Origin: Candidatus Doudnabacteria bacterium RIFCSPHIGHO2_01_FULL_46_14
GTDB taxonomy: Bacteria > Patescibacteriota > Doudnabacteria > UBA920 > 2-01-FULL-46-14
Assembly (NCBI GenBank): GCA_001779925.1
Contig: MFEK01000016.1
Coordinates: forward strand, 142,504 to 206,503
Direction: 5' to 3'
DNA: 64,000 bases
The number at the start of each line of letters is the position of its first letter. Positions within the stretch are counted from its first letter, which is position 1. A program made the position numbers and the translations under genes. A model generated the notes under the pieces. That model was not told the DNA's origin. It saw only the letters and a list, made by a program, of their open reading frames with translations, and did not search any database. This document shows, in pieces, positions 3,333-50,998 of the stretch.

Positions 3333-3701
3333 ATGATAAACAGGGTGTTTGAATTTACACATCCAGCGCTTCCCGGCGTGTCTGTATTTGCGCTTGGGAC
3401 GGAGACGGAAATCGGAAAGAGGCAGGAGGTGTTGGTTTGTATCCCGCCTAATGGCACTATTCCGCTTCACAAACACAGCGTTGATGCGGAAATGTACATT
3501 GTGCATGGTACTGCGACTTTGCTTTCTGATGATTCGGAGCTGGACGGTGCTGTTGTGGCAACCGGGACTCGTGTATTTTTCCAAAAGTCCATGAACCACG
3601 GCTTCAAGGCTGGTGACAAAGGAATGAAGTTTATTTCCCGTAATAACGGCATAGTGAATGCGGATTCGCAGAAATGGGACATCGAGTTTGCCGCCGTGTA
3701 A
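3333..3701 (+). CDS. Cupin-domain protein
   Basis: Cupin motif PLHKHSVDAEMYIVHG...G. RBS AAGGAGG 8 nt upstream of ATG at 3333. Confidence 0.65.
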   Translation: MINRVFEFTHPALPGVSVFALGTETEIGKRQEVLVCIPPNGTIPLHKHSVDAEMYIVHGTATLLSDDSELDGAVVATGTRVFFQKSMNHGFKAGDKGMKFISRNNGIVNADSQKWDIEFAAV

Positions 3702-3747
3702 AAGGCTGGGGAAAAATCGAAAACGGAGGGAGGTGATAAAAAAGCAA

Positions 3748-3781
3748 GACCGACGAATGAAACATTCGCCGGTCTTTTTGT
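3748..3781. terminator. Bidirectional rho-independent terminator
   Basis: GACCGACGAATG-aaac-CATTCGCCGGTC followed by TTTTTG. Confidence 0.6.
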
Positions 3782-3796
3782 TGCGAGTAGACTTGC

Positions 3797-4495
3797 TTAA
3801 GCAACGAGGTGCAGACGACGCGCAAAGCCGCGGAGTCTGATGAGCGCCCTAGCATTGGAATTCCGAGGTGTAAGGTAATACGTGCGGAATTCAATCAGTG
3901 TCAGTGATGCTGGACAGAAGATTGAGAGATCTTCGGTAAACAACCACCATAGCCAGGTTGTTGCGATAGTTGCTCCCAGATGTAGGAAATGCCAGTCGTC
4001 TTTGACGCCGAGGATAACCGGCCAAGTTTTCATGGCATCATATCTGTCAGCATTCACATCGCGCCAGTCTCCAAGTGCGTTTCTAATTGCAGTCGCTATC
4101 GCAGCGACAACAGAAAACCTGAAATCCGCAAAGGGAGATGTAAGGGCAAACACCTGTGCCCCTCGGAAAAATGGAGAAAGCAGACCCCAGCGCCCATCTT
4201 TCTTGCGAGCATATTGAATGGAACAGCAGAGATACAAGACAATCTCGTTTTGGTGATGGGCGCCAAAGTATGTCCCGCCAATGAGTACACATAAAGCCCA
4301 AGGTAGATCTCCAATCACCGGTTCTCTTCCAGGCTGTTTGTGTCGGGACTCCAGAAATGCGAGGAATCCAACATGCAGCATCACTGCACCAAATATTGGA
4401 CCAAGAGGCGCCGTCGCTGCGAACATCATTAGTATGAGGTCCACGAGCGAGTAAAGCCTGAGCTGGCCTAAATAATTCTTAAGCTTACTTTTCAT
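3797..4495 (-). CDS. Polytopic membrane protein with a UbiA-like Asp-rich motif (divergent or truncated prenyltransferase?)
   Basis: Hydrophobic throughout. Motif NALGDWRDVNADRYDAMKTWPVILG resembles the UbiA first motif NDxxDRxxDxxxKRT..RPLxxG, but its position and the short C-terminus are atypical. Start taken at MKSKL after RBS GGAGG. Confidence 0.4.
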   Translation of the reverse strand: MKSKLKNYLGQLRLYSLVDLILMMFAATAPLGPIFGAVMLHVGFLAFLESRHKQPGREPVIGDLPWALCVLIGGTYFGAHHQNEIVLYLCCSIQYARKKDGRWGLLSPFFRGAQVFALTSPFADFRFSVVAAIATAIRNALGDWRDVNADRYDAMKTWPVILGVKDDWHFLHLGATIATTWLWWLFTEDLSIFCPASLTLIEFRTYYLTPRNSNARALIRLRGFARRLHLVA

Positions 4496-8424: not shown

Positions 8425-8638
8425 AAAGATTGAAATCCGGGAATGATAATGCAGAAAAATTAGCCAAAGCGGCCGCGTAAAGCGTGGTCATGATAATGGC
8501 GTAAAGCGCGCACACAGTGAGGCTGAGGATTTTTGATTTTCCGTAGTGAAGCAAAATATAGACCATAACCAGGCTATAAATCGCATGAATGCCCAGGAGG
8601 ATGTAAAAGACAGTTTGGACGATCAGTTTGATGATCAT
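8414..8638 (-). CDS. Small membrane protein (74 aa)
   Basis: Two hydrophobic helices. Overlaps neighbours by a few nt, as in operons. Confidence 0.35.
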
Positions 8639-9678
8639 ATTAAGGTGTTCATTTGTGATTTTTGTTGGGCGATGCCGAGGTGTTCATAAGCCAGCGCGGT
8701 CGCGACTCGGCCTTTTGGGGTGCGATCCAAAAACCCCAGGCGCATCAGGTATGGCTCGTAAATATCGGCAATGGTTTGTTCTTCCTCGCTGGTCGCGGCT
8801 GCCAAAGTGTTTATACCCACTGGTCCGCCCTGGAATTTTTCAATGAGCGCCAGCAAAATAGAGCGGTCATTGCGATCAAGGCCGAGAGCATCCACCTCCA
8901 GCATGTCGAGAGCCTGCCGGGCAAGCTCGTTGGTGATTTTGCCGTTAGAACGAACCTCGGCAAAATCGCGCACGCGCCGTAGGAGGCGGTTTGCGATTCT
9001 CGGAGTTTTGCGCGCGCGTTTGGCGATTTCTTGGCCGGCCAGAGACTCCATGCCAATGTCGAGAATTTTTGCACTGCGCGTCACAATCTTTTCAATTTCT
9101 TCTTCGCCGTAAAAATCAAGCCGCACGGTAACGCCGAAGCGATCACGAAGCGGACCGGAGAGGAGGCCGATGCGGGTGGTAGCGCCGATGATGGTAAAGC
9201 GCGGCAGATCAAGACGCACGGACCGCGCGCCCGGCCCTTTGCCGAGAACTATATCAAAAGCAAAATCTTCCATGGCCGGATAGAGAATCTCTTCCACGAC
9301 TTTGGGAAGACGGTGGATTTCGTCGATAAACAAGATGTCATTATTTTGCAGGTTGGTCAGAAGGCTGGCGAGGTCGCCCGCGCGTTCAATAGCCGGCCCA
9401 GAGGTCATTTTGATCTGCACTCCGGTTTCATTCGCGAGCACAAAGGCCAGGGTGGTTTTCCCAAGTCCCGGCGGGCCATAGAGGAGTACATGCTCGATTG
9501 GCTGTTTTCTTTTTTTGGCAGCCTCCAACAGAATCTTGAGATGCTCTTTGTTTTTCTCCTGGCCGATATAGTCACGCAAAGTTTTCGGCCGCAAAGTCAG
9601 ATCCAACCGCTCTTCTTCCGAGGCTTGCGGTTTGACTACTCTTTCTTGCTCTTTTTTTTCTGAGGTTTTCTCGATCAT
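8635..9678 (-). CDS. ruvB: Holliday junction DNA helicase RuvB
   Basis: Walker [12 protein letters not shown], Walker [11 protein letters not shown], RuvB C-terminal wHTH. Confidence 0.9.
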
Positions 9679-17638: not shown

Positions 17639-17674
17639 GCTTTTTCCATATATGATCCATTGACGATTAAAACC

Positions 17675-17710
17675 CCCAAGGAACTTCGTGCGTCCTTGGG
17701 TGGTTTTTAT
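17675..17710 (+). terminator. Rho-independent terminator
   Basis: CCCAAGGAacttcgtgcgTCCTTGGG followed by TGGTTTTT. Confidence 0.65.
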
Positions 17711-17744
17711 TTCATGAGCCGCACCCTCGCATTTGCGCATTTTT

Positions 17745-17800
17745 TCAAATCATACTACCATATACTCATAGGATTCTCGGCCGCGAAGTCTGTGAGTAGT
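17745..17800. repeat. Palindromic direct repeat (copy 1) upstream of the PaaX-like regulator: TACTCATAGGATTCTCGGCCGCGAAGTCTgTGAGTAGT
   Basis: Near-identical copy at 18382-18427. Internal 9-10 bp inverted arms ACTCATAG/CTATGAGT. Confidence 0.75.
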
Positions 17801-17825
17801 AGATGAATTAAGATCCTTAGTAATC

Positions 17826-18398
17826 ATGAATAAAACTCTCAAGCGTATATTAGGCGGGACGGGCAGCCTAGCCCGAGACATTATTGAGTATCTTCGGGAA
17901 GCTCATGAAATGAGCGCTGAAGTGTGTTTTTCCACAACTTTTGGTGCGCGTCCTGGGCGCGCTTATTATAAGAGGCAATCGGTTTACAACACGTTCTCAC
18001 GATTGCAAAAGCAAGGTTATCTGCGAAAGGAAAGGCGAGCTGGTAAGAAGGCAGTCTATAAGCTGCCTACAGTTGTGCGAAAAGAACTGGAGGCATTTGA
18101 AAGATTGACATTAAAGCATCGATCATCAGCCAATTGGGATCGGCGTTGGAGATTGGTGTCATTTGATATTCCAGAAACTCAACATAAATACCGCGATACT
18201 TTGCGCTGGAAATTAAAACGGCTGGGTTTAGAAAAATTTCAACAGAGTATTTGGCTTACCCCGTATCCGCTGGAGGATGATTTTCAACAAATCATTGCCG
18301 AGGGTGGCCTACAAGATTGTGTGTTCATTATTGATACAGACCGTATTCCAAATGAGATAAAATGGCGTCGCTGTTTTCAGCTTACTAACTACTCATAG
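17826..18398 (+). CDS. PaaX-like transcriptional regulator (N-terminal wHTH, C-terminal Cas2-like fold)
   Basis: C-terminal WRLVSFDIPE...QQSIWLTPYP resembles the PaaX C-terminus/Cas2-like motif. The stop codon lies inside repeat copy 2. Confidence 0.5.
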   Translation: MNKTLKRILGGTGSLARDIIEYLREAHEMSAEVCFSTTFGARPGRAYYKRQSVYNTFSRLQKQGYLRKERRAGKKAVYKLPTVVRKELEAFERLTLKHRSSANWDRRWRLVSFDIPETQHKYRDTLRWKLKRLGLEKFQQSIWLTPYPLEDDFQQIIAEGGLQDCVFIIDTDRIPNEIKWRRCFQLTNYS

Positions 18399-18427
18399 GA
18401 TTCTCGGCCGCGAAGTCTATGAGTAGT
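18382..18427. repeat. Palindromic direct repeat (copy 2), overlapping the regulator stop and upstream of polA
   Basis: 37/38 identity with 17763-17800. Confidence 0.75.
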
Positions 18428-18460
18428 TAAATTATGTTAGGATAAGTAGGATAAAGGGCT

Positions 18461-21292
18461 ATGGGAAAAGATAAAGAAGAGAAAAAAGATATATTGCTTT
18501 TGGTGGATGGGAATGCGCTCATACACCGGGGGTTTCATGCGATTCCGCATTTGTCTACGAAAGCGGGCGAGCCGACCAATGGCGTGTATGGTTTTACGGT
18601 GTTGTTTTTGCGCGCCCTCAAAGAGCTGGCGCCACGGTATGTGGCGGTGGCCTTTGATCTGCCTGGCGGTACGTTTCGCGATAAGCTCTACGATGCTTAC
18701 AAGGCCAAGCGAGTCGCGGCGCCTGCTGAACTGTATTCGCAGATCCCGCGCGTAAAAGAATTGGTGCAAGCCATGAACGTGCCAACATTTGAACTTGAGG
18801 ACTATGAAGCGGATGATATTATCGGTTCACTGGCTGAGCTTGGTAAACGTGAGCAGAATTTGGAAACTATTATTTTGACTGGCGATCTGGATGCTTTGCA
18901 GCTCGTGGATGACAATGTAAAAGTTTTCACGCCAAAGCAGGGACTCAGTGAGACAATGATTTATGATCGAAAGGCTGTGGAGGTTCGCTATGGAATAGCG
19001 CCCGAGCAGATCGTGGATTACAAAGCTTTGCGAGGGGACGCTTCTGATAACATTCCGGGCGTCAAAGGCATTGGCGAGAAAACTGCGACCGAGTTGCTGC
19101 AAAAATTTGGAACTTTGAAAGGAATTTATGAGGTTTTGACTTCACCCCTCCCTAACCCTCCCCCTCAAGGGGAGGGAATAAGACCGAAAGTTGCGCAATT
19201 ATTACTCCTGCATCGGCAGGACGCCGAGATTTCGCAAAAATTGGCGCAGATTGTGCGCGATCTGCCGATCAAACTCGACCTGAAAAAGGCAGAACTCGCG
19301 GATTATGACGCTGAGCCGGTTGTAAAAATGTTTCAGGAGCTGGAGTTTCGAAGCTTGATTGATAAGCTGCCGAAGAATAACCCCCCTCAATCCCCCCTTA
19401 GTTTAAGGGGGGAAGAAAATGCGGATCAGGGGGAGGAAAAACTTACGAAAAGTGTAATTCAGTCCAATTATGAATTAGTCGATTCGAAAAAGGAATACGA
19501 GGCTCTGATAAAGGGATTAAAGGGAGTAAAGGAAATCGCGATTGATACGGAAACAACCTCGATTCATCCGGTGCAGGCCGAGCTTCTCGGTTTGGGAATT
19601 GGCTGGGAAGAGGGAAAGGCGTTTTACGTTCTTAGAAACTTTGTGGGACCGGAATTGATCTCCATTCTCGAGAACTCTGGCGTCAAAAAGATCGGGCACA
19701 ATATAAAATATGATTATCTGGTTTTAAAACAGGCAAGAATCAAATTGGCCGGTATGAATTTTGATACCATGATCGCGGCTTATTTGCTCAATCCAGGGGC
19801 GCGCAATTTTGATCTCGACAGTTTGAGTTTCAACGAATTCGGGATCCGCAAGATTTCCATTACCAGTCTGATTGGCCCCTCACCCTTAGTAAAGGGTGTA
19901 GGGGGCAAAAAACAGATTAATATGAGAGAGGTTGATCCTGAGCGAGTGGCTGAATATTGCGGCGAAGATGTAGACTGCACTTGGCGGCTCAAACAGAAAC
20001 TGGAAACAGAATTAAAAAACAAGAATCTGGAAAAAGTTTTTTATGAGATAGACATGCCGCTCGTTGCCGTGCTTGCGGAAATGGAACACTCGGGCATTAA
20101 GATTGATACGAAATATTTAAAAGAGCTTTCTGCGAAAGCTGAGCAAGAAGCTGACAAAATTCAGAAACAAATCTGGAAATTGGCCGGCGAAGAGTTCAAT
20201 ATCGGCAGCCCGATTCAACTTAAGAAAATACTTTTTGAAAAGCTGGGGATTCCGAGCGATGAACTAAAAAAAGGCAAAACCGGCCTCTCGACCGCGGCCC
20301 AGGAGCTCGAAAAACTGCGCGGCCTGCATCCGATTGTGGATCTGATTTTCGACTGGCGGGAAATCACAAAGCTCAAAAACACTTATCTTGATGCTCTGCC
20401 GGATCTGGTTTACAAAAAAACAGGGAGACTGCACACGAGTTTCAACCAAACTATTGCCGCTACCGGCCGACTGTCATCGTCTGATCCGAATCTGCAGAAT
20501 ATTCCGATTCGCACAGAACTCGGACGCGAGGTGCGTAAAGCCTTTGTGGCGGAAAAAAGCTGCAAATTGGTTTCCATAGACTATTCGCAGATCGAATTGC
20601 GACTTGCTGCTCACATTTCCGGGGATCCGAAAATGATTGAGGTATTTCGGAGCGGCGGAGATATCCATGAGGCTACTGCAAGAGACATCTTTAACCTCAC
20701 CCCAGCCCTCTCCTCACGAGGAGAGGGAGCAGAAGTCACTCCTGATATGCGGCGGGCAGCCAAGACTATAAATTTTGGCGTGCTCTATGGCCTGTCTGCG
20801 TATGGACTTAAATCCCGAATTCCAGGAGTGTCGGTGGGAGTAGCGGAAGATTTTATTAATAAATATTTTGCAACCTACAAACGCCTCGCTGACTATCTCG
20901 ACGAGGTTGTTGAAGAAACAAAAAAGACTGGCTATGTTCATAATGAACTGGGACGACTCCGGTTTCTGCCGGAGATCAATTCGTCCCAGTTTCAGGTGCG
21001 CTCTGCGGCAGAGCGCGCGGCCATCAATATGCCGTTTCAGTCCCTGTCCGCGGACATTATCAAAATGGCTATGAATAAATTGGCGGAAAAGAATTTAATA
21101 ACCCAGCCTGATTGCAGGCTTCTCTTGCAGGTTCATGACGAACTCGTATTTGAAATCGCGGAAAATAAAATCGAGAAATACGTGCCAGAGATCGTAAAGA
21201 TCATGCAGAATATTTATAAGCTGAAAGTTCCCTTGGTGGTTGATGCCAAAGCCGGAGAGAACTGGGAAGTCATGGAAAAGCTGGCCGTTTAG
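18461..21292 (+). CDS. polA: DNA polymerase I (5'-3' exo, 3'-5' exo and polymerase domains) carrying four in-frame GC-rich repeat insertions
   Basis: LLVDGNALIHRGFHA 5' nuclease N-terminus. Polymerase motifs DYSQIELR, RRAAKTINFGVLYG, QVHDELVFE. Inserts at 19143-19182, 19381-19440, 19874-19906, 20694-20730. Confidence 0.9.
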   Translation: MGKDKEEKKDILLLVDGNALIHRGFHAIPHLSTKAGEPTNGVYGFTVLFLRALKELAPRYVAVAFDLPGGTFRDKLYDAYKAKRVAAPAELYSQIPRVKELVQAMNVPTFELEDYEADDIIGSLAELGKREQNLETIILTGDLDALQLVDDNVKVFTPKQGLSETMIYDRKAVEVRYGIAPEQIVDYKALRGDASDNIPGVKGIGEKTATELLQKFGTLKGIYEVLTSPLPNPPPQGEGIRPKVAQLLLLHRQDAEISQKLAQIVRDLPIKLDLKKAELADYDAEPVVKMFQELEFRSLIDKLPKNNPPQSPLSLRGEENADQGEEKLTKSVIQSNYELVDSKKEYEALIKGLKGVKEIAIDTETTSIHPVQAELLGLGIGWEEGKAFYVLRNFVGPELISILENSGVKKIGHNIKYDYLVLKQARIKLAGMNFDTMIAAYLLNPGARNFDLDSLSFNEFGIRKISITSLIGPSPLVKGVGGKKQINMREVDPERVAEYCGEDVDCTWRLKQKLETELKNKNLEKVFYEIDMPLVAVLAEMEHSGIKIDTKYLKELSAKAEQEADKIQKQIWKLAGEEFNIGSPIQLKKILFEKLGIPSDELKKGKTGLSTAAQELEKLRGLHPIVDLIFDWREITKLKNTYLDALPDLVYKKTGRLHTSFNQTIAATGRLSSSDPNLQNIPIRTELGREVRKAFVAEKSCKLVSIDYSQIELRLAAHISGDPKMIEVFRSGGDIHEATARDIFNLTPALSSRGEGAEVTPDMRRAAKTINFGVLYGLSAYGLKSRIPGVSVGVAEDFINKYFATYKRLADYLDEVVEETKKTGYVHNELGRLRFLPEINSSQFQVRSAAERAAINMPFQSLSADIIKMAMNKLAEKNLITQPDCRLLLQVHDELVFEIAENKIEKYVPEIVKIMQNIYKLKVPLVVDAKAGENWEVMEKLAV
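19143..19182. repeat. GC-rich palindromic repeat in frame within polA (encodes SPLPNPPPQGEGIRP)
   Basis: CCCTCCCCCTCAAGGGGAGGG hairpin. Confidence 0.75.
19381..19440. repeat. GC-rich palindromic repeat in frame within polA (encodes NPPQSPLSLRGEEN..QGEE)
   Basis: CCCCCCTTAGTTTAAGGGGGG hairpin plus GGGGGAGG. Confidence 0.7.
19874..19906. repeat. GC-rich palindromic repeat in frame within polA (encodes GPSPLVKGVGGK)
   Basis: CCCCTCACCCTTAGTAAAGGGTGTAGGGGG. Confidence 0.65.
20694..20730. repeat. GC-rich palindromic repeat in frame within polA (encodes TPALSSRGEGAE)
   Basis: CCCTCTCCTCACGAGGAGAGGG palindrome. Confidence 0.7.
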
Positions 21293-22036: not shown

Positions 22037-24022
22037 CTATTTCTTTCTATGTAGCCTTTGGTATTGTTGGATTCGGATTATCTCATCTCTTAAGTGTGCT
22101 GCCCGCTCGAATTCTAAATTTTTACTCGCCAGGTCCATGCGGTCCTTGAGTTCTTCGAGGAAATACCGCACCTCTTTTTTGTCGAGCTTGGCAATGTCGA
22201 ATTCTTGTTTAGGCACCTCTAACGCTTTAGCTCCAGCCAGGCGAGATTCGCTGATGGCTTTCTGAATGGTTGTGGGAGTAATGCCGTGTTTTTTGTTGTA
22301 TTCGGTCTGGATTTTCCTGCGCCTTTCAACTTCATCAATGGCTTCCTTCATAGAGCGGGTTTCTCGGTCTGCATACATGATCACGCGGCCCTCAGAATGA
22401 CGCGCAGCCCGGCCCATGATTTGCAGGAAAGACGTTTTTGATCGCAGGAATCCTTCTTTATCTGCATCGAGAATGGCGACCAGGGAAACCTCAGGCAGAT
22501 CGAGGCCTTCTCTGAGCAAATTTATGCCAACGATCACATCATAAATCCCGAGCCTGAGATCGCGCAGAATCTCGAGACGCTCAAATGTATCTACCTCGCT
22601 GTGCAGGTAGTGGGATTTTACACCATTTTCTTTCAGAAACTCGGCCAGTTCCTCAGCCATGCGTTTGGTCAGGGTCGTTGCCAGCACGCGCTGGTTTTTT
22701 TTGACGCGTTTCTGGATCTCTTCCATCAGATTATCAATCTGATATTTCGTGGGCCGGACCTCGATTTCCGGATCGAGAAGGCCAGTGGGGCGGATGAGCT
22801 GTTCTGCGACGGTTTTGGATAGACCGATTTCATAGGGCGAGGGGGTAGCGGAAACAAAAATTGCATTATTGATTTTTTTGAGGAATTCCTGGTACCGGAG
22901 AGGCCGGTTGTCCATGGCCGAGGGCAGGCGAAAGCCGTAATCAACCAGGGTCTGTTTGCGGGATTTGTCGCCCTCATACATGGCACCTATCTGCGGCACA
23001 GTCATATGCGATTCATCTATAAAAAGTAAAAAATCATCAGGGAAATAATCAAGCAAGGTAGAAGGTGGTTCGCCAGCTTTGCGAAAATCCATCTGGCGTG
23101 AATAGTTTTCAATGCCGTTGACATAGCCGGTCTCAAGGAGCATTTCGATATCAAAATTGGTGCGTTGCTCGATGCGCTGGGCTTCCAGTAGCTTCTCCTG
23201 CGCCTTAAATTTTTTGAGCTGGAGCCGCAGTTCTTCGCGGATATTTTCTACCGCGAGATGGATCTTGTCCTGATCTGTGACGAAATGCTTGGCTGGAAAA
23301 ATGCGGTACGAAGAATGCGTTTTCTCATCCTCGCCAGTCAGCGCGTCAAACTCAGTCATCTTTTCCAGAGTGTCGCCAAAAAAATCCATGCGCACCACCC
23401 GATCCTCATGTGCGGGCACGATCTCGAGCACATCGCCGCGGATGCGAAATGTACCCCGCCTGAGGTCCAGATCATTGCGAATGAATTGGAGGTCAACCAA
23501 TCTTCTCAGAAGCTTGTCGCGTTTGTAATCTTTTCCGACTTCTAATTCCAATGACAACTCTAAATAATTAGCCGGGTTACCCAAGCCATAAATGCAGGAT
23601 ACTGACGCGACAATGATTACGTCCTTGCGGGACAGCAGACTCTGGGTGGCTGCGTTTCGCAGCCGATCTATCTCCTCATTAATATCCGTTTCCTTCTCTA
23701 TATATGTATCTGATCTTGGGATATAAGCTTCTGGCTGGTAATAGTCATAGTAAGACACAAAATAATGCACAGCATTGTCTGGAAAAAATTCTTGAAATTC
23801 CGATGCCAGCTGTGCGGCCAGGGTTTTGTTATGGGAAATGACGAGTGTGGGTTTCTGAATTTCTTGAATCACATTAGCCATAGTAAAAGTCTTTCCCGAA
23901 CCCGTCACCCCAAGCAGGGTTTGGAAATCGTGATCTTTTTTCACCCCCGCGACCAGTTTTTTAATCGCGTCCGGCTGGTCCCCTGTTGGTTGGAATTTTG
24001 AAACAAGTTTAAATTGATCCAT
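22037..24022 (-). CDS. uvrB: Excinuclease ABC subunit B
   Basis: [15 protein letters not shown] Walker A, UvrB helicase motifs, C-terminal UVR domain. Confidence 0.9.
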
Positions 24023-24390: not shown

Positions 24391-24430
24391 GCGTTTCGAA
24401 TCTTGCAGTATCGAAGCGCCTTTGTTGTTT
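24391..24430. terminator. Bidirectional terminator hairpin
   Basis: AAGGCGTTTCGAatcttgcagtaTCGAAGCGCCTT followed by TGTTGTTT. Confidence 0.55.
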
Positions 24431-25226
24431 ACACAATAGCCGTCCAGCTATTTTTTTGTTTTGGTTTCAAATCCATTGTGTTCCAAATTCCTTTGAACAC
24501 CTCGCGTAGATTGTGGGCCAACACTTGATCGTGAATTTCCACGAGATAGTGCGGACGGGCGTCAGCCACAATCATCACTACATAATCGCCAAGGATCCAG
24601 GTTGTGGCTTGGAAATTGTGGCTTTGGTCCCAGAAGCGGATATCGCGCTGGGCGAATTTTTTCTTTTTGATTTTTTCCGCGGACTCGTTGGAGAGCAATC
24701 GCAGAGAAATCCCCGGCTTGGCGCACTCTTCCCAGTACCAGTCAATCCATTTTTCATAGGCTCCGACAAACGCATGATCCTGAAAGCCCCACCAGATGCC
24801 GTCATACTGCAGCATACTGTCATCCCAAATCGGTGACTGTTTATGTAAATGATTTTCCAGTTCATCCTCAGCCACAAACACGATTTTCGGCACAGAGTAT
24901 TTTACATTTTTGGCTAAAGCCTGAAGTTCTTGGATGGCGTCTGGCAGGGACGCTTTTTTCTTTTGCAAAAGTTTTTCTTGTTTCGTGACAACATGCTGCA
25001 AATCCGCAGGGGGGCGAGCCACTACATACATATTGGTACTGCCGAGGTCCTGCGCCACAACCCCCTTTTCTACCAGCTCATTGATAACGCTATAGCAGGT
25101 GGTGCGGTTGATGCCGGCGATGCGCGCGAGTGCTCCAGGCGTGATTTTGCCGTGCTGAAGAACTGCAAGATAAACCGCGATTTCTTTGTCGCCAAAGCCG
25201 AGGGATTTGAGAGTGTCTTGAATCAT
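24429..25226 (-). CDS. TrmB-family transcriptional regulator (paralog 2)
   Basis: wHTH ITPGALARIAGINRTTCYSVINELVEKGVV. Confidence 0.8.
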   Translation of the reverse strand: MIQDTLKSLGFGDKEIAVYLAVLQHGKITPGALARIAGINRTTCYSVINELVEKGVVAQDLGSTNMYVVARPPADLQHVVTKQEKLLQKKKASLPDAIQELQALAKNVKYSVPKIVFVAEDELENHLHKQSPIWDDSMLQYDGIWWGFQDHAFVGAYEKWIDWYWEECAKPGISLRLLSNESAEKIKKKKFAQRDIRFWDQSHNFQATTWILGDYVVMIVADARPHYLVEIHDQVLAHNLREVFKGIWNTMDLKPKQKNSWTAIV

Positions 25227-25237
25227 AATTCTCTTTT

Positions 25238-25322
25238 TCCCCTCCCTTGAGGGGAGGGGGCTGGGGGAGGGTGGAATATTACCACCCCCACCTAACCTCC
25301 CCCCTCAAGGGGGAGGAATAAT
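25238..25322. repeat. Composite GC-rich palindromic repeats in the 5'UTR of TrmB paralog 2
   Basis: CCCTCCCTTGAGGGGAGGG plus GGGTGGaatattaCCACCC plus CACCCCCACCTAACCTCCCCCCTCAAGGGGGAGGAAT. The last block is near-identical to 27877-27915. Confidence 0.75.
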
Positions 25323-25334
25323 ACTGATGGTTGT

Positions 25335-26535: not shown

Positions 26536-26608
26536 GTGAGCCTCCTTGAGTTTTTCTGTATTATAAATGCTTTGAGTTTTGTGGTAAAATGAGGATATTC
26601 ATAGGCGA

Positions 26609-26647
26609 CCTCTCCCTTAATCCCTCCCCACGCCTGGGGAGGGAAAC
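26609..26647. repeat. GC-rich palindromic repeat in the ruvA 5' leader
   Basis: CCCTCCCCACGCCTGGGGAGGG hairpin. Confidence 0.65.
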
Positions 26648-26657
26648 TAAATATAAT

Positions 26658-27224
26658 ATGATTTCATTTTTGGATGGGACAATCAAGGCCATTCGCAAGA
26701 ATTACCTGATAGTCATGACTGACTATGTTGGTTACAAGGTTTTTGTGACGCCGCAGATTTTGCTGAATGTCCAGCCCGCGCAAAAGACTTCGCTTTTTAC
26801 TTTTACCTATGTGCGGGAGGACCAGCTTGCGCTTTACGGATTTTCTACATTGAATGAGCTGGAGTTTTTTGAACAGCTCATTGGCGTGTCCGGCATTGGC
26901 CCGAAATCCGCTCTCGCCATCATGTCTGTGGGGACGCTCGATGTAATTAAAAGCGGCATTTTAAATGGTGATGTTTCGCTGTTCACGCAAGTTTCGGGTG
27001 TAGGGCGCAAGACCGCAGAAAGGCTCATCCTAGAGCTCAAAGAAAAAATTGCCTCGAGTCCTGAGGAGCTGGCAGCTCCCCGGCATTCGGATGTGATTGA
27101 CGTGCTCATGGCTCTGGGGTATTCGCGCACAGAAGCGCGGGAGGCGCTGGCCCAAGTCCCTGCAGATTTGAAGGATTCGGAGGATAAGATACGATTCGCT
27201 CTAAGATCGTTAGCTAAGCAGTAA
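26658..27224 (+). CDS. ruvA: Holliday junction DNA helicase RuvA
   Basis: MISFLDGTI N-terminus, HhH motifs GIGPKSALAIM / VSGVGRKTAERL, C-terminal domain III. Confidence 0.8.
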   Translation: MISFLDGTIKAIRKNYLIVMTDYVGYKVFVTPQILLNVQPAQKTSLFTFTYVREDQLALYGFSTLNELEFFEQLIGVSGIGPKSALAIMSVGTLDVIKSGILNGDVSLFTQVSGVGRKTAERLILELKEKIASSPEELAAPRHSDVIDVLMALGYSRTEAREALAQVPADLKDSEDKIRFALRSLAKQ

Positions 27225-27339: not shown

Positions 27340-28743
27340 ATGATCGATTTCCTACGCCAAATTCTCGGTCAACGAATCCTTAATTACTACCACCTTGTTT
27401 GCGCTATAATCGCTAACATTCTTTATGGTTTCCCTTCACGCAAGCTACATGTCATCGGGGTGACTGGCACGGATGGAAAAACTACGACCGTAAATATGAT
27501 TGCCAGTATTCTGCGCGCGGCAGGGCTGCCAACCGCGCATCTCTCCACTGTGAATGCGCAGATCGGCGATAAAGTTTATGACACCGGTCTTCATACGACA
27601 ACTCCCAGTCCGTTTCTACTTCAGAAACTAATTCGCAGAGCAGTCAATGCTGCATCATTTTTTTTGGTGCTAGAGGTGACCTCGCACGCGCTTGATCAAT
27701 ATCGGACCTGGGGAATAAAATTTGAAACTGCGGTCATCACCAATATCAGCCATGAACATTTGGATTATCACAAGGGTTTATCAAGTTATATGGCGGCGAA
27801 AGGGAGAATTTTTAAGAATGTGGAATATGGAATATTGAATATGGATGATGGGAGTTATGAATATTTTTCAAAGATTCACCCCCACCTAACCTCCCCCCTC
27901 GAGGGGGAGGAATTAAAACGCGAGCAGCTATTGACCTATGGACTGACTGCAAATGCCAAAGTCTGGGCGGATAATATTGAGGAAAGTCTGATTGCTACAA
28001 AATTTAGAGTACACCCGCCAGACAGCAAGGCAGGTGCTATGGCAGAAACGATTTCGATTGAGTTAAACCTGCCCGGCAAATTTAATGTTTATAATGCGCT
28101 GGCGGCGATTAGCGTGGGGGTAAATTATAATGTTGCTCCAGAGGCAATCCAAAAGGGATTAAGGGGAGTAAGTCGGATTCCTGGACGGCTGGAATTCATC
28201 ACCCCTCCCTCAGTCCCTCCCCATCAAGCCTACCCCAAAAGCGAGTACGCTTTCGGGGGACCCCGGCAAGGGGAGGGAAGAATGCGGGTCATGGTGGATT
28301 TTGCGCATACGCCGAATGCGATTGAAAATCTGATGCAGTTTCTGCGGCCGAAAATCAGCGGGAAGATTATCCACGTGTTCGGCAGTGCCGGAGAGCGCGA
28401 TGTTACAAAGCGGCCGCTCATGGGCGCGGCTTCTGATAAATATGCGGACATCATTGTCCTGACGCGCGAGGATAATCGAAGCGAGCAAGTCCAAGATATC
28501 TGCGTGCAAATCGCGCAAGGGATTACGCGCAAGCAGAATGGCAAAGAATACTTTATAATTCCGGATAGGCGGGAAGCGATCAGAACCGCCCTTCGACTGG
28601 CTCAGGGCAGTGACGATTTGATAATCGTCACTGGCAAAGGCCACGAGCAGAGTTTGAATGTGGGTGGCGTGGAAACTCCGTGGGATGATAGGGAAATAGT
28701 TAGAGAAGTCGCCTCTTCGGCGACCAGCCGAGGAGGCGGGTAA
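27340..28743 (+). CDS. Mur ligase family protein (MurE/MurF-like) with two in-frame GC-rich repeat insertions
   Basis: VIGVTGTDGKTTT P-loop and Mur ligase middle/C-terminal domains. Inserts at 27877-27915 and 28198-28285. Confidence 0.75.
   Translation: MIDFLRQILGQRILNYYHLVCAIIANILYGFPSRKLHVIGVTGTDGKTTTVNMIASILRAAGLPTAHLSTVNAQIGDKVYDTGLHTTTPSPFLLQKLIRRAVNAASFFLVLEVTSHALDQYRTWGIKFETAVITNISHEHLDYHKGLSSYMAAKGRIFKNVEYGILNMDDGSYEYFSKIHPHLTSPLEGEELKREQLLTYGLTANAKVWADNIEESLIATKFRVHPPDSKAGAMAETISIELNLPGKFNVYNALAAISVGVNYNVAPEAIQKGLRGVSRIPGRLEFITPPSVPPHQAYPKSEYAFGGPRQGEGRMRVMVDFAHTPNAIENLMQFLRPKISGKIIHVFGSAGERDVTKRPLMGAASDKYADIIVLTREDNRSEQVQDICVQIAQGITRKQNGKEYFIIPDRREAIRTALRLAQGSDDLIIVTGKGHEQSLNVGGVETPWDDREIVREVASSATSRGGG
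27877..27915. repeat. GC-rich palindromic repeat in frame in the Mur ligase gene (encodes HPHLTSPLEGEEL)
   Basis: 37/39 identical to 25285-25322. Confidence 0.8.
28198..28285. repeat. Composite GC-rich repeat in frame in the Mur ligase gene (encodes PPSVPPHQAYPKSEYAFGGPRQGEGR)
   Basis: CCCTCCCTCAGTCCCTCCCC ... GGGGGACCCCGGCAAGGGGAGGGAAG. Confidence 0.65.
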
Positions 28744-28745
28744 GT

Positions 28746-29186
28746 ATGGAACTATATATAGATACAACAGAGCAAGGGGTTATCAAGCTACAATTATACA
28801 GTGGTGAGAAAGTTATAGGGAAATCAAGAAAGCAAACTTTGAAAATTTCCGAATCATTACTTCCGGAGATTGAAAAATTGTTAAAAAAACATGGAGTTAA
28901 ATTTGTAGACTTGAAAAAAATTTCGGTTAATCCGGGTCCGGGAGGTTTTTCTTCAACGCGCACTGGGGTGGCTACTGCCAACGCTTTGAATTATGCTTTA
29001 GGGGTTAATAAAATAGTTTTGTCCGTTTATGACAAGGAACCGAATATAACAAAAGCAAAGCTTCTCCCCCTCATGAGGGGGAGACAGAGAGGGGGTCGTA
29101 GAATTAGAATTAACAAGACCTCACCTAAGCCCTCCTCCCAGCCTATGCCAGAGGCTTCGGCGGGCACAGCACGAGGAGGGGGATAA
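28746..29186 (+). CDS. Truncated TsaB-like protein (YeaZ N-terminal half) with a repeat-encoded C-terminal tail
   Basis: NPGPGGFSSTRTGVATANALNYALGV matches the TsaB GPGSFTGxRIG motif. The last ~40 aa are encoded by GC-rich repeats 29061-29186. Confidence 0.5.
   Translation: MELYIDTTEQGVIKLQLYSGEKVIGKSRKQTLKISESLLPEIEKLLKKHGVKFVDLKKISVNPGPGGFSSTRTGVATANALNYALGVNKIVLSVYDKEPNITKAKLLPLMRGRQRGGRRIRINKTSPKPSSQPMPEASAGTARGGG
29061..29186. repeat. Two GC-rich palindromic repeats (TCTCCCCCTCATGAGGGGGAGA.. and CCCTCCTCCC..GAGGAGGGGG) forming the 3' end of the TsaB-like ORF
   Basis: Subtype shared with 49-95 and 2381-2422. Confidence 0.7.
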
Positions 29187-49861: not shown

Positions 49862-50998
49862 TTATTTCCAACTCCTTAATTCCCAGTTGGGATTGACCTT
49901 GATTTTTTTTATTGGTGTGCCGCGGTTGCCAGCTGAGTATTGGTAAAATGCGGCCATGGTGATCATGCCAGCGTTGTCAGTAGTGAGATTGGAATGTGGA
50001 ATATGGAATGTTGAATGTGGAAGGGATTTTTTGATGGCCGAAGCTAGTTGTTTGCGTAGTTTTTCATTAGCGGAAACGCCGCCGCCGAGAAGAATGGTTT
50101 TTACTTTGTATTGTTTGGCAGATCTGATGGTTTTTGAAACAAGTACGTCAACGATGGCTTGTTCTACGCTGGCAGCCACGTTGGCGACTTGCGATTGGCG
50201 ATTGGCGACCAGCAAGGATTGCCAGTGGTAAAGCACTGCGGTCTTCAGGCCGGAAAAGGAAAAGTCATAATTTTTAGAATCCATCATCGGCCTTGGGAAA
50301 TCAAAAGCCTGGGGTTTGCCTTTCTTCGCGAGTTTTGAAATTTCCGGCCCGCCAGGGTAAGGCAGACCCATGATTTTCGCGACCTTATCAAAGCATTCGC
50401 CTGCCGCGTCATCAACTGTTTCGCCCAATATTTTGTATTTCCCAATTTTTTCGACAAGGACCAACATCGTGTGGCCCCCCGACACTACCAAGCCTAATGC
50501 TGGAAACTTCACCCTCCCCTTACCCCTCCCCTCAAGGGAGGGGAATTCCTCCCCCTTGAGGGGGGAGGATAAAGGTGGAGGTGACTCATTCGCCAAGGCG
50601 GAAAGCAAATGTCCTTCCATATGGTTAATCGGCAGGATGGGGATCTGCAACGCAAACGCCAAAGCTTTGGCAGTATCTACGCCAATCATCAAAGAGGTGA
50701 CAAGGCCCGGCCCAGCAGTAACTGCGATCGCGTTAATATCTTTGAGCTGGACCCCCGCTTTCGCGAGGGCTTGTGCGATTACGGGCAAGATTTTCAAGAT
50801 ATGATTGCGTGCGGCAACCTCCGGGACAATTCCTCCGGTTTTTTGGTGGATATTGATCTGTGAATAGATGATATTCGAAAGAAGCCGGAACTTCCGACTT
50901 TTTGTCTCACCTTCCAGAACAGCCGCGCTCGTCTCGTCAGCGGAGGATTCAATGGCGAGAATGTGTGTCACCCCTGCACCAGATTTAAACCAATTCAT
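49862..50998 (-). CDS. tsaD: tRNA t6A37 threonylcarbamoyltransferase TsaD (Kae1/YgjD) with a ~30-aa in-frame repeat insertion
   Basis: ILAIESSADETSAAV N-terminus and HMEGHL metal-binding motif. Insert at 50509-50583. Confidence 0.85.
   Translation of the reverse strand: MNWFKSGAGVTHILAIESSADETSAAVLEGETKSRKFRLLSNIIYSQINIHQKTGGIVPEVAARNHILKILPVIAQALAKAGVQLKDINAIAVTAGPGLVTSLMIGVDTAKALAFALQIPILPINHMEGHLLSALANESPPPLSSPLKGEEFPSLEGRGKGRVKFPALGLVVSGGHTMLVLVEKIGKYKILGETVDDAAGECFDKVAKIMGLPYPGGPEISKLAKKGKPQAFDFPRPMMDSKNYDFSFSGLKTAVLYHWQSLLVANRQSQVANVAASVEQAIVDVLVSKTIRSAKQYKVKTILLGGGVSANEKLRKQLASAIKKSLPHSTFHIPHSNLTTDNAGMITMAAFYQYSAGNRGTPIKKIKVNPNWELRSWK
50509..50583. repeat. Tandem GC-rich palindromic repeats in frame within tsaD (encode SPPPLSSPLKGEEFPSLEGRGKGRVK on the minus strand)
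   Basis: CCCTCCCCTCAAGGGAGGGG and CCTCCCCCTTGAGGGGGGAGG. Confidence 0.75.

Follow-up and report, generated by a model that had tools for sequence, protein, structure and literature searches.

A truncated PaaX-type regulator gene bracketed by paired palindromes upstream of polA in a Doudnabacteria genome

Patescibacteria have tiny genomes with few recognized transcription factors, and the regulation of their core functions is largely obscure. Here we describe a gene for a small PaaX-type protein that lies directly upstream of polA, the gene of DNA polymerase I, in a 64,000-nucleotide (nt) stretch of the genome of Candidatus Doudnabacteria bacterium RIFCSPHIGHO2_01_FULL_46_14 (contig MFEK01000016.1, positions 142,504 to 206,503; hereafter the window). 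The gene is bracketed by two copies of a 34-base-pair (bp) palindrome, which we designate O1 and O2. Comparison with related loci suggests that gene and palindromes form a conserved local module, probably an autoregulated dimeric repressor with two operators which also controls polA. As a single case this would be a fairly ordinary autoregulator. Three things are new: the regulators form a truncated PaaX-type family whose genes are systematically enclosed by a palindrome of their own, in Patescibacteria they stand ahead of core genes (polA among them), and their sites evolve by compensatory change. No description of a palindrome-bracketed PaaX/Cas2-like family was found in the searchable literature, which is weak evidence of novelty since the search missed most subscription journals. 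The module consists of the following elements.

17764-17797, no strand: O1, copy 1 of the 34-bp palindrome, ACTCATAGGATTCTCGG joined to CCGCGAAGTCTGTGAGT, at about −5 to +30 of the start of the predicted promoter P1
17826-18398, plus strand: regulator gene, 573 nt including the stop codon, encoding 190 amino acids (aa); truncated PaaX-type protein
18391-18424, no strand: O2, copy 2 of the 34-bp palindrome, ACTCATAGGATTCTCGG joined to CCGCGAAGTCTATGAGT; the palindrome extends to 18386-18429

The palindromes are part of a direct repeat of 45 nt with 91% identity (17756-17800 and 18383-18427). An initial annotation of the window, made from sequence, had reported a repeat core at 17763-17800 and 18390-18427, and in this core 37 of 38 positions are indeed identical, the lone difference being G17792 versus A18419. 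Both copies are centred on CGGCCG and the 34-bp core follows the formula ACTCAT-N8-CGGCCG-N8-ATGAGT, with ACTCATAGGATTCTCGG joined to CCGCGAAGTCT(G/A)TGAGT as the consensus over both copies. Copy 2 is a near-perfect palindrome with 22-nt arms (18386-18407 and 18408-18429) that are 86% complementary, and copy 1 is the same palindrome with one additional mismatch. Each copy is thus a hairpin as annotated, but the arms are longer than the 9-10 bp given at that time: the core has 17 positions per arm, of which 14 form Watson-Crick pairs in copy 2. The regulator stop codon (TAG, 18396-18398) falls within the left arm of O2, in agreement with the annotation. The second copy also lies just before polA as stated, although the gap from 18427 to the polA start at 18461 is 33 nt and not 30 bp; relative to the 34-bp core of O2, polA starts 36 nt downstream.

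With up to three mismatches allowed, the 34-nt core occurs exactly twice in the window, against an expectation of 0.00 from 100 shuffles, which rules out a chance repeat. A half-site search and a search with the degenerate pattern ACTCAY-N8-CGGCCG-N8-RTGAGT, both over the whole window, returned hits at O1 and O2 only. With just two copies in the window, an origin of O1 and O2 from a dispersed repeat family was also ruled out.

The open reading frame (ORF) between the repeats, whose length of 573 nt had been given correctly in the initial annotation, encodes a protein with a predicted winged helix (approximately residues 15-80), a linker helix and a Cas2-like domain of β-α-β-β-α-β order (residues 108-171). 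Its early assignment as PaaX/Cas2-like was supported by profile and structure comparisons. The Pfam family PaaX_M (PF20803, 'PaaX central Cas2-like domain') matched residues 102-172 with 73.8 bits at a cut-off of 24, and the same domain is recognized in distant bracketed homologues. The PaaX winged helix (PF07848) scored 14.2 bits at a cut-off of 24.8, and the PadR and penicillinase-repressor winged helices of Pfam matched below threshold only. An AlphaFold model computed from 13 sequences (pLDDT 74.5) contains the winged helix. The best Protein Data Bank (PDB) matches of this model found by Foldseek were E. coli PaaX (8A39, E value 6e-7), Rv0674 and 3L09, with both domains aligned; both domains also align to 3KFW.

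The protein ends at residue 190 and Pfam found no match to PaaX_C (PF08223) in it. Its score for the PaaX equivalog of NCBIfam (TIGR02277) was 50.8 bits, far under the cut-off of 264.55 bits. Because the C-terminal domain is absent and the equivalog score is below the cut-off, the regulator is not a PaaX orthologue; it is a two-domain 'mini-PaaX'. There is no linkage to paa genes nearby, the neighbours being DHH and pilB-like ATPase genes, polA, and the genes for S20 and uvrB. Cas2 models matched below threshold, both TIGR01573 (19.1 bits, cut-off 24.5) and those of PADLOC (E values of 3e-4 to 7e-3 over 36-54 residues). Pfam and NCBIfam gave only PaaX, Cas2 and helix-turn-helix hits for the regulator, with no HUH or tyrosine-recombinase domain, and PHROGs gave no match. 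A second family member was not found in the window. Public records label these proteins 'hypothetical protein'.

Orthologous loci were gathered from homologue contigs and from genome and metagenome scans, the homologues having 48-81% protein identity. The resulting group comprises nine loci: the window, L001, L002, L033, L034, L113/L114, L115, L116 and L117. The closest named genome among the homologue loci is a metagenome-assembled genome of Candidatus Doudnabacteria. All nine loci have one palindrome ahead of the start codon and a second at or just past the stop codon, and they have the upstream DHH and pilB-like ATPase genes in common. A presence/absence comparison, as proposed with the initial annotation, thus places the module at eight related loci, with polA as the next gene wherever downstream DNA is visible, and finds neither module nor solo palindrome at four others (L118-L121). 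The repeat occurs only at this locus within the window and the gene is syntenic in relatives, which favours operators over mobility.

The 16 distinct palindromes of the polA group align without gaps. ACxCA, CGGCCG and TGxGT are invariant, and the middle positions are loose, pairs 9-26 and 10-25 being unpaired in 7-9 of the 16 sequences. In L001 and L113, T3/A32 is replaced by C3/G32 in both arms of both copies. That all four half-sites change together within a genome points to one shared sequence-specific reader. At some loci (L002 5557-5590; the 3′ end of the L116 regulator gene; P0007, P0010 and P0012) the ORF reads through copy 2, and the C-terminal tail of the protein is then a translated operator (...SHVTRPRIK, ...SPVARPRTV or ...SLASRPRSK, with RP encoded by CGGCCG). 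The DNA-level constraint is visible in these tails, and O2 could be predicted from protein data alone.

Contigs carrying close polA homologues provided information on gain and loss. L118 has neither module nor palindrome, and an unrelated gene of 247 aa occupies the slot. The N-terminus of its polA product is 91% identical to that of the module-bearing L115, and L118 nests inside the module-bearing clade. In L119, L120 and L121 (polA 50-62% identical) the module is absent too. No solo palindrome was left behind at the module-less loci, and no orientation polymorphism was seen among syntenic orthologues. This makes the slot between the pilB-like gene and polA a variable one. The module probably dates back to the ancestor of a subclade, with at least one later loss.

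The predicted signals around the palindromes are listed below, together with polA.

17669-17713, plus strand: terminator-like hairpin and T-run; arms 17669-17682 and 17693-17706, 86% complementary, followed by TTTTTATTT
17733-17761, plus strand: predicted promoter P1; −35 TTGCGC at 17733-17738, 17-nt spacer, −10 TACCAT at 17756-17761
18435-18443, plus strand: predicted extended −10 of the polA promoter P2, TGTTAGGAT, 13 nt past O2
18461-21292, plus strand: polA, DNA polymerase I, 943 aa; DNA_pol_A, two 5′-3′ exonuclease domains and a 3′-5′ exonuclease domain

The hairpin, which a simple terminator scan did not list, ends an upstream ORF of 204 aa and has a counterpart in L001; the regulator gene would therefore open a new transcription unit. 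P1 has 8 of 12 consensus matches and was not listed by a generic promoter scan. Its −10 hexamer ends 2 nt ahead of the O1 palindrome, and the order of −35 (TTGCAC-like), 17 nt, −10 (TATnAT-like), 2 nt and palindrome is found at eight of the nine orthologous loci (alignment A2). Covering about −5 to +30 of the predicted P1 start, O1 is in a classic repressing position. Past copy 2, the motif TnTGnTAnnAT is invariant in six aligned orthologous loci (alignment A3), the hexamer being 11-13 nt away from O2 at five of these loci and 25 nt away in L113. The predicted polA start at about 18450 puts the O2 centre at approximately −42.5, and there is no −35-like hexamer at P2.

Scans with the protein alignment yielded about 110 loci, in which 77 distinct complete genes were scored. 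A direct repeat shared by the upstream region and the stop region, well above controls, brackets 69 of these 77 family genes, as compared to 2 among 102 genes from the neighbourhood that served as controls. Of these two controls, only one stands out clearly, a cysteine-rich 145-aa minus-strand ORF downstream of the module in L037 (about 3606-4043), which is flanked by two identical 37-nt terminator-like sequences (ATAAACAAAAAGCCCCGACACGCGTCGAGGCCTTTTT); the other control gene was barely at threshold. The family genes are mostly from Staskawiczbacteria, Saccharibacteria and other Patescibacteria, plus Verrucomicrobia. Verrucomicrobial relatives are bracketed by palindromes of 32-52 bp (L026, 3664-4572; L030 and L031, 3663-4582; L007, 3780-4706). 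Relatives from this phylum, including L026, L030 and L007, retain PaaX_C (255-278 aa), so that bracketing is confined neither to truncated proteins nor to Patescibacteria. A HMMER search over 1.84 billion representatives returned 5810 clusters at E ≤ 1e-3 and 2659 at E ≤ 1e-10, which makes this a family of thousands of 50%-identity clusters, mostly of Patescibacteria; the polA-linked group accounts for only two clusters, at E ≤ 1e-30. A link to defence or phages was ruled out by the PADLOC hits, which were sub-threshold and to Cas2 only, the PHROGs result and a search of viral contigs that found no relatives.

The family repeats are palindromes of 26-56 bp, usually centred on AAGCTT, CGGCCG/GCGGCCGC or AACGTT. 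Genomes contain several paralogues, and the palindromes are paralogue-specific, differing even within one genome. A comparison of the two copies at 52 loci shows conservation in the centre (positions 1-5, counted from the axis) and in an outer block (positions 11-17), with positions 6-10 being variable. Between-copy similarity drops past position 18 at these loci, which gives a canonical size of 34-36 bp. Extra copies are rare, with 2 in 316 kb of family loci. These are third, diverged copies (7/34 mismatches) found only in L007 (3670-3703) and L040 (811-844); one sits about 100 bp upstream of copy 1, the other between stop codon and copy 2. Distances between outer half-sites correlate with winged-helix distances (r 0.24, p 0.005), as compared to r 0.13 (p 0.10) for the Cas2-like domain; this correlation is confounded by phylogeny and merely consistent with co-evolution.

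In a subfamily of about 175 aa, 38% of loci have a TATAAT hexamer lying across the right edge of copy 1, as compared to 4% for random positions. The start codon of these genes most often follows the end of the palindrome at 10-14 nt, and within about 10 nt in many loci. A Shine-Dalgarno motif is rare (6 of 41 loci). Here the palindrome appears to be the core promoter of a probably leaderless gene. Other genes found downstream of family members are holA, topA, recG, metG, secA, ftsW/rodA and ksgA, and genes for NUDIX, FemAB and HD proteins, a choice that may merely reflect small genomes in which every neighbour is a housekeeping gene. A −10-like hexamer past copy 2 is enriched only if the next gene is co-directional (18% vs. 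6%). The spacing between copies 1 and 2 showed no helical phasing for periods of 9.5-12 bp.

In E. coli, PaaX binds TGATTC-N27-GAATCA as a dimer and is a repressor of its own promoter (PMC9493321). Together with this precedent, the shared long palindromes and the promoter geometry support an autoregulated dimeric repressor with operators at its own promoter and that of polA. The observations behind it are the repeat, its conservation and co-variation, the fold of the protein and the predicted placement of the promoters. In the mechanism that we propose, the 190-aa protein would form a dimer, its winged helix binding DNA and its Cas2-like domain dimerizing as in PaaX. Recognition of the 34-bp palindrome would go through ACTCA(Y)/(R)TGAGT as outer half-sites and through CGGCCG in its centre. 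Protein bound at O1, 2 nt past its own −10, would block initiation and cause autorepression. At O2, upstream of the extended −10 promoter, it would set the expression of polA too, most likely by covering the −35 region; possible alternatives are that O1 and O2 are joined in a loop of 627 bp or that the bound protein halts read-through as a roadblock. Binding, the sign of regulation, looping and a signal sensed by the protein are inferred.

Several observations weigh against this mechanism. The next gene is convergent in about 30% of the family loci, and copy 2 persists there as a palindrome of no lesser quality. In general, copy 2 can therefore not be explained by control of a downstream promoter and would have a role tied to the regulator gene itself; looping to copy 1 or a roadblock are guesses at what this role is, given that copy 2 is followed by no T-tract and the spacing shows no helical phasing. 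In L115, O2 stays at the regulator stop codon while polA begins about 445 nt further on and the extended −10 motif is absent. The protein also appears to be without a recognizable ligand domain. The FDIP motif of Cas2 strand β1 is retained and its Asp is at least 90% conserved in 65 family members, as is the FQQS.W motif of Cas2, whereas in E. coli PaaX both motifs are lost and there is a gap at the position of the Asp. Retention of the Asp hints at more than dimerization. Thus the early suggestion of operators for an autoregulator that also controls polA fits the co-variation, P1 abutting copy 1 and the extended −10 after copy 2, but bracketing that persists with a convergent downstream gene indicates that it is not the whole story.

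The mode of sequence change in the palindromes is a further such point. Between the two copies of a locus, we counted 46 fully compensatory double changes in 884 mirrored positions, compared to about 7 expected if the arms were independent. Some palindromes are lengthened to 48-56 bp by outer arms that are specific to one copy. Within the polA group there are two half-site variants, GGATTC and GACTTC, and genomes differ in how these are distributed over the four arms. The compensatory excess and the copy-specific outer arms go beyond a simple dimer-operator model. Together with the assortment of the variants they reflect either a selected ability to form hairpins or cruciforms or a templated transfer of sequence from arm to arm, and the latter is known from the mutation literature as quasi-palindrome template switching.

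The same protein and sites could also act with the opposite sign at polA, by class II-type activation from O2 combined with repression of the regulator promoter at O1. We consider this unlikely. It agrees with the missing −35-like hexamer and with the O2 centre, which precedes the predicted polA start by about 42.5 nt; CRP, FNR and other class II activators typically have this geometry. However, PaaX is known only as a repressor, and extended −10 promoters need no activator. Moreover, the distance from O2 to the −10 is 25 nt in L113, L115 has no extended −10 and a polA gene about 445 nt downstream, and family members beside convergent genes keep copy 2.

Another explanation invokes a DNA transaction, with the protein acting as a palindrome- or cruciform-specific nuclease, nickase or recombination factor that uses the Cas2-type Asp on the two sites bounding its own gene, for excision, inversion or chromosomal site marking. 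The conserved Asp and FQQS.W motifs that E. coli PaaX has lost, the sub-threshold Cas2 hits, the long perfect palindromes with sequence exchange from arm to arm, and bracketing regardless of the orientation of the downstream gene are in its favour. Nevertheless it seems improbable to us, as syntenic orthologues show no orientation polymorphism, loci without the module have no solo palindrome, the domain is not known to have any activity in PaaX-family proteins, and conservation of the Asp could be purely structural. With a catalytic Asp, the family would represent DNA enzymes of a new, palindrome-directed type. A related idea, of which we are equally doubtful, is that palindrome, gene and palindrome form a self-contained element whose winged-helix/Cas2-like protein recognizes and perhaps nicks or processes extruded hairpins, and that the loci are domesticated or cryptically mobile cassettes ahead of housekeeping genes (polA, holA, topA, recG, secA, metG, ftsW). 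Such an element would be an extant example of palindromic direct repeats being linked to a Cas2-like protein outside CRISPR.

The palindromes might instead function in RNA, where they would form stem-loops at either end (5′ and 3′) of the regulator mRNA and serve in stability, termination or processing, possibly bound by the Cas2-like domain. The calculated RNA fold of O2 has an energy of −20.7 kcal/mol (z −6), and the excess of compensatory changes as well as hairpin co-variation in the polA-group palindromes, which exceeds controls, would be expected for such structures. Mismatches on the sense strand are more often G.T than A.C (50 vs. 31), a skew too weak to carry weight as an RNA-specific signal. 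Against stem-loops, either strand folds equally well, the middle pairs are mostly unpaired in the polA orthogroup, and a hairpin would not demand the same sequence in copies 1 and 2. Furthermore, the predicted P1 start is inside the left arm of O1, and in the subfamily of about 175 aa, with a −10 straddling the right edge of copy 1, this copy would not be transcribed from its own promoter. No Rfam family matches O1 or O2, the single RNA match in the window being one tRNA elsewhere. A role for O2 as intrinsic terminator was ruled out: the terminator scan made no call at O2, the tail that follows (AGTTAAATTATG) is without a T-tract, and copy 2 has no T-tract family-wide, the mean T content of the 9 nt after it (3.2-3.6) not being above that after copy 1. 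We therefore regard the stem-loop explanation as very improbable.

The least credible explanation is a mobile cassette upstream of polA, either integron-like with an attC-type site, as first suggested for this locus, or a hairpin-ended element resembling IS200 or REP/RAYT: an ORF between direct copies of an imperfect palindrome, the variable slot between the pilB-like gene and polA, the loss from L118 nested among module-bearing relatives and several paralogues per genome are compatible with it, but the position is conserved down to 48% protein identity, no integrase or transposase is found within about 10 kb and no HUH or tyrosine-recombinase domain in the protein, the palindrome occurs twice in 64 kb with two extra copies in 316 kb of family loci, viral relatives were not found, and the same palindrome is present on either side, unlike in integron cassettes. 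Recent mobility was ruled out, since all seven family pairs with at least 70% identity are syntenic and no near-identical modules occur at different loci.

ORFs scanned from 7.8 to 30 kb (within about 10 kb) contain no integrase or recombinase domain, and neither do the gene calls of syntenic loci. There are no cas genes among the scanned ORFs and no CRISPR-like array among the direct repeats of the window. DNA repair genes are abundant around the module (ruvB and ruvA, polA and a presumed uvrB). The neighbours listed as DNA repair or regulator genes are as follows.

8635-9678, minus strand: one of the two genes ruvB and ruvA
22037-24022, minus strand: ORF of 661 aa; its size and location suggest uvrB, in line with L118, where polA and S20 are followed by a gene called as uvrB
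24429-25226, minus strand: TrmB-type winged-helix regulator
26589-27224, plus strand: the other of the two genes ruvB and ruvA

The polA gene itself has in-frame insertions at 19145-19162, 19880-19903 and 20702-20722 that are absent from the nine closest homologues. Each is a G/C-rich mini-palindrome, and they resemble the in-frame palindromic elements known from Rickettsia. The insertion at 19143-19193 belongs to a dispersed G/C-rich palindromic repeat of about 40-60 nt, unrelated to O1 and O2, with at least eight copies in the window (for example CACCCCTCCCTAACCCTCCCCCTCAAGGGGAGGGAATAA). Copies are located at 19143-19193, 25283-25333, 27877-27927 and 50510-50560, and further ones at 1208-1271, 1551-1614, 54-95, 2378-2419 and 29057-29098. 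A separate A/T/G-rich 30-nt sequence of GGAATAT-like units (GAATGTGGAATATGGAATATTGAATATGGA) is found at 27816-27845 and 49992-50021 with 93% identity, and as a weaker copy at 5-34.

If the proposed autoregulated repressor is correct, polA and other replication and repair genes may be under dedicated local control in Patescibacteria. The comparison points to a large family of minimal PaaX-type regulators that lacks annotation and is encoded right upstream of housekeeping genes, in the window that of DNA polymerase I. Each regulator has an easily recognized, paralogue-specific putative operator of 34-36 bp, which yields ready-made protein-site pairs for study. The comparison also raises the questions why a site is kept at both ends, even before convergent genes, and why arms exchange sequence in a compensatory manner.

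Among known systems, some resemblances are partial. The lambda immunity region likewise has a repressor gene between its own operators: cI lies between OL and OR, which loop through CI, with three sites per set about 2.4 kb apart. In lambda this looping tightens autoregulation. The proteins are unrelated and the O1-O2 spacing shows no helical phasing, so the comparison is one of analogy only. The winged helix resembles PadR-family proteins and the centromere-binding protein AspA (named from PDB titles), which binds a palindrome beside its own operon. The resemblance is weak, with E values of about 0.03 by sequence, the second domain is of another kind, and no partition genes are present here. 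Integron cassettes share with the module a short ORF with an imperfect palindrome overlapping its 3′ end. At the polA locus there is no IntI and no cassette array, with a single ORF between the repeats, an identical palindrome on both sides and a position conserved across deep divergence; attC is a longer (about 60-140 bp) two-stem site, unlike the 34-bp palindrome. REP/RAYT and IS200/IS605 elements also consist of a small gene flanked by hairpin-forming palindromes, but the regulator has no HUH-Y1 transposase fold or motif and its palindromes are not dispersed.

Cas2 shares with the regulator the fold order, the β1 motif (LVSFDIPE in the regulator, LVxYDI in Cas2) and the Q.S.W strand. HMM hits are weak (E 3e-4 to 1e-3), all those with a curated cut-off falling below it. 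The Cas2-like domain is here fused to a winged helix, and its neighbourhood contains neither cas1 nor a CRISPR array. E. coli PaaX (PDB 8A39; PF07848, PF20803 and PF08223) has the succession of winged helix and Cas2-like domain seen in the AlphaFold model of the regulator and is the best structural match. It uses a long palindrome with widely spaced 6-bp half-sites, as is proposed for the regulator. PaaX possesses a C-terminal domain, which according to a review binds phenylacetyl-CoA (PMC9493321), and has no FDIP motif, while the reverse holds on both counts for the 190-aa protein. Bracketing as a canonical PaaX property was rejected, as E. coli paaX is not flanked by a repeat and the pattern that was applied detected no GATTC...GAATC site. 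The regulator gene of the window differs from paaX in its bracketing palindromes and in its location away from paa genes.

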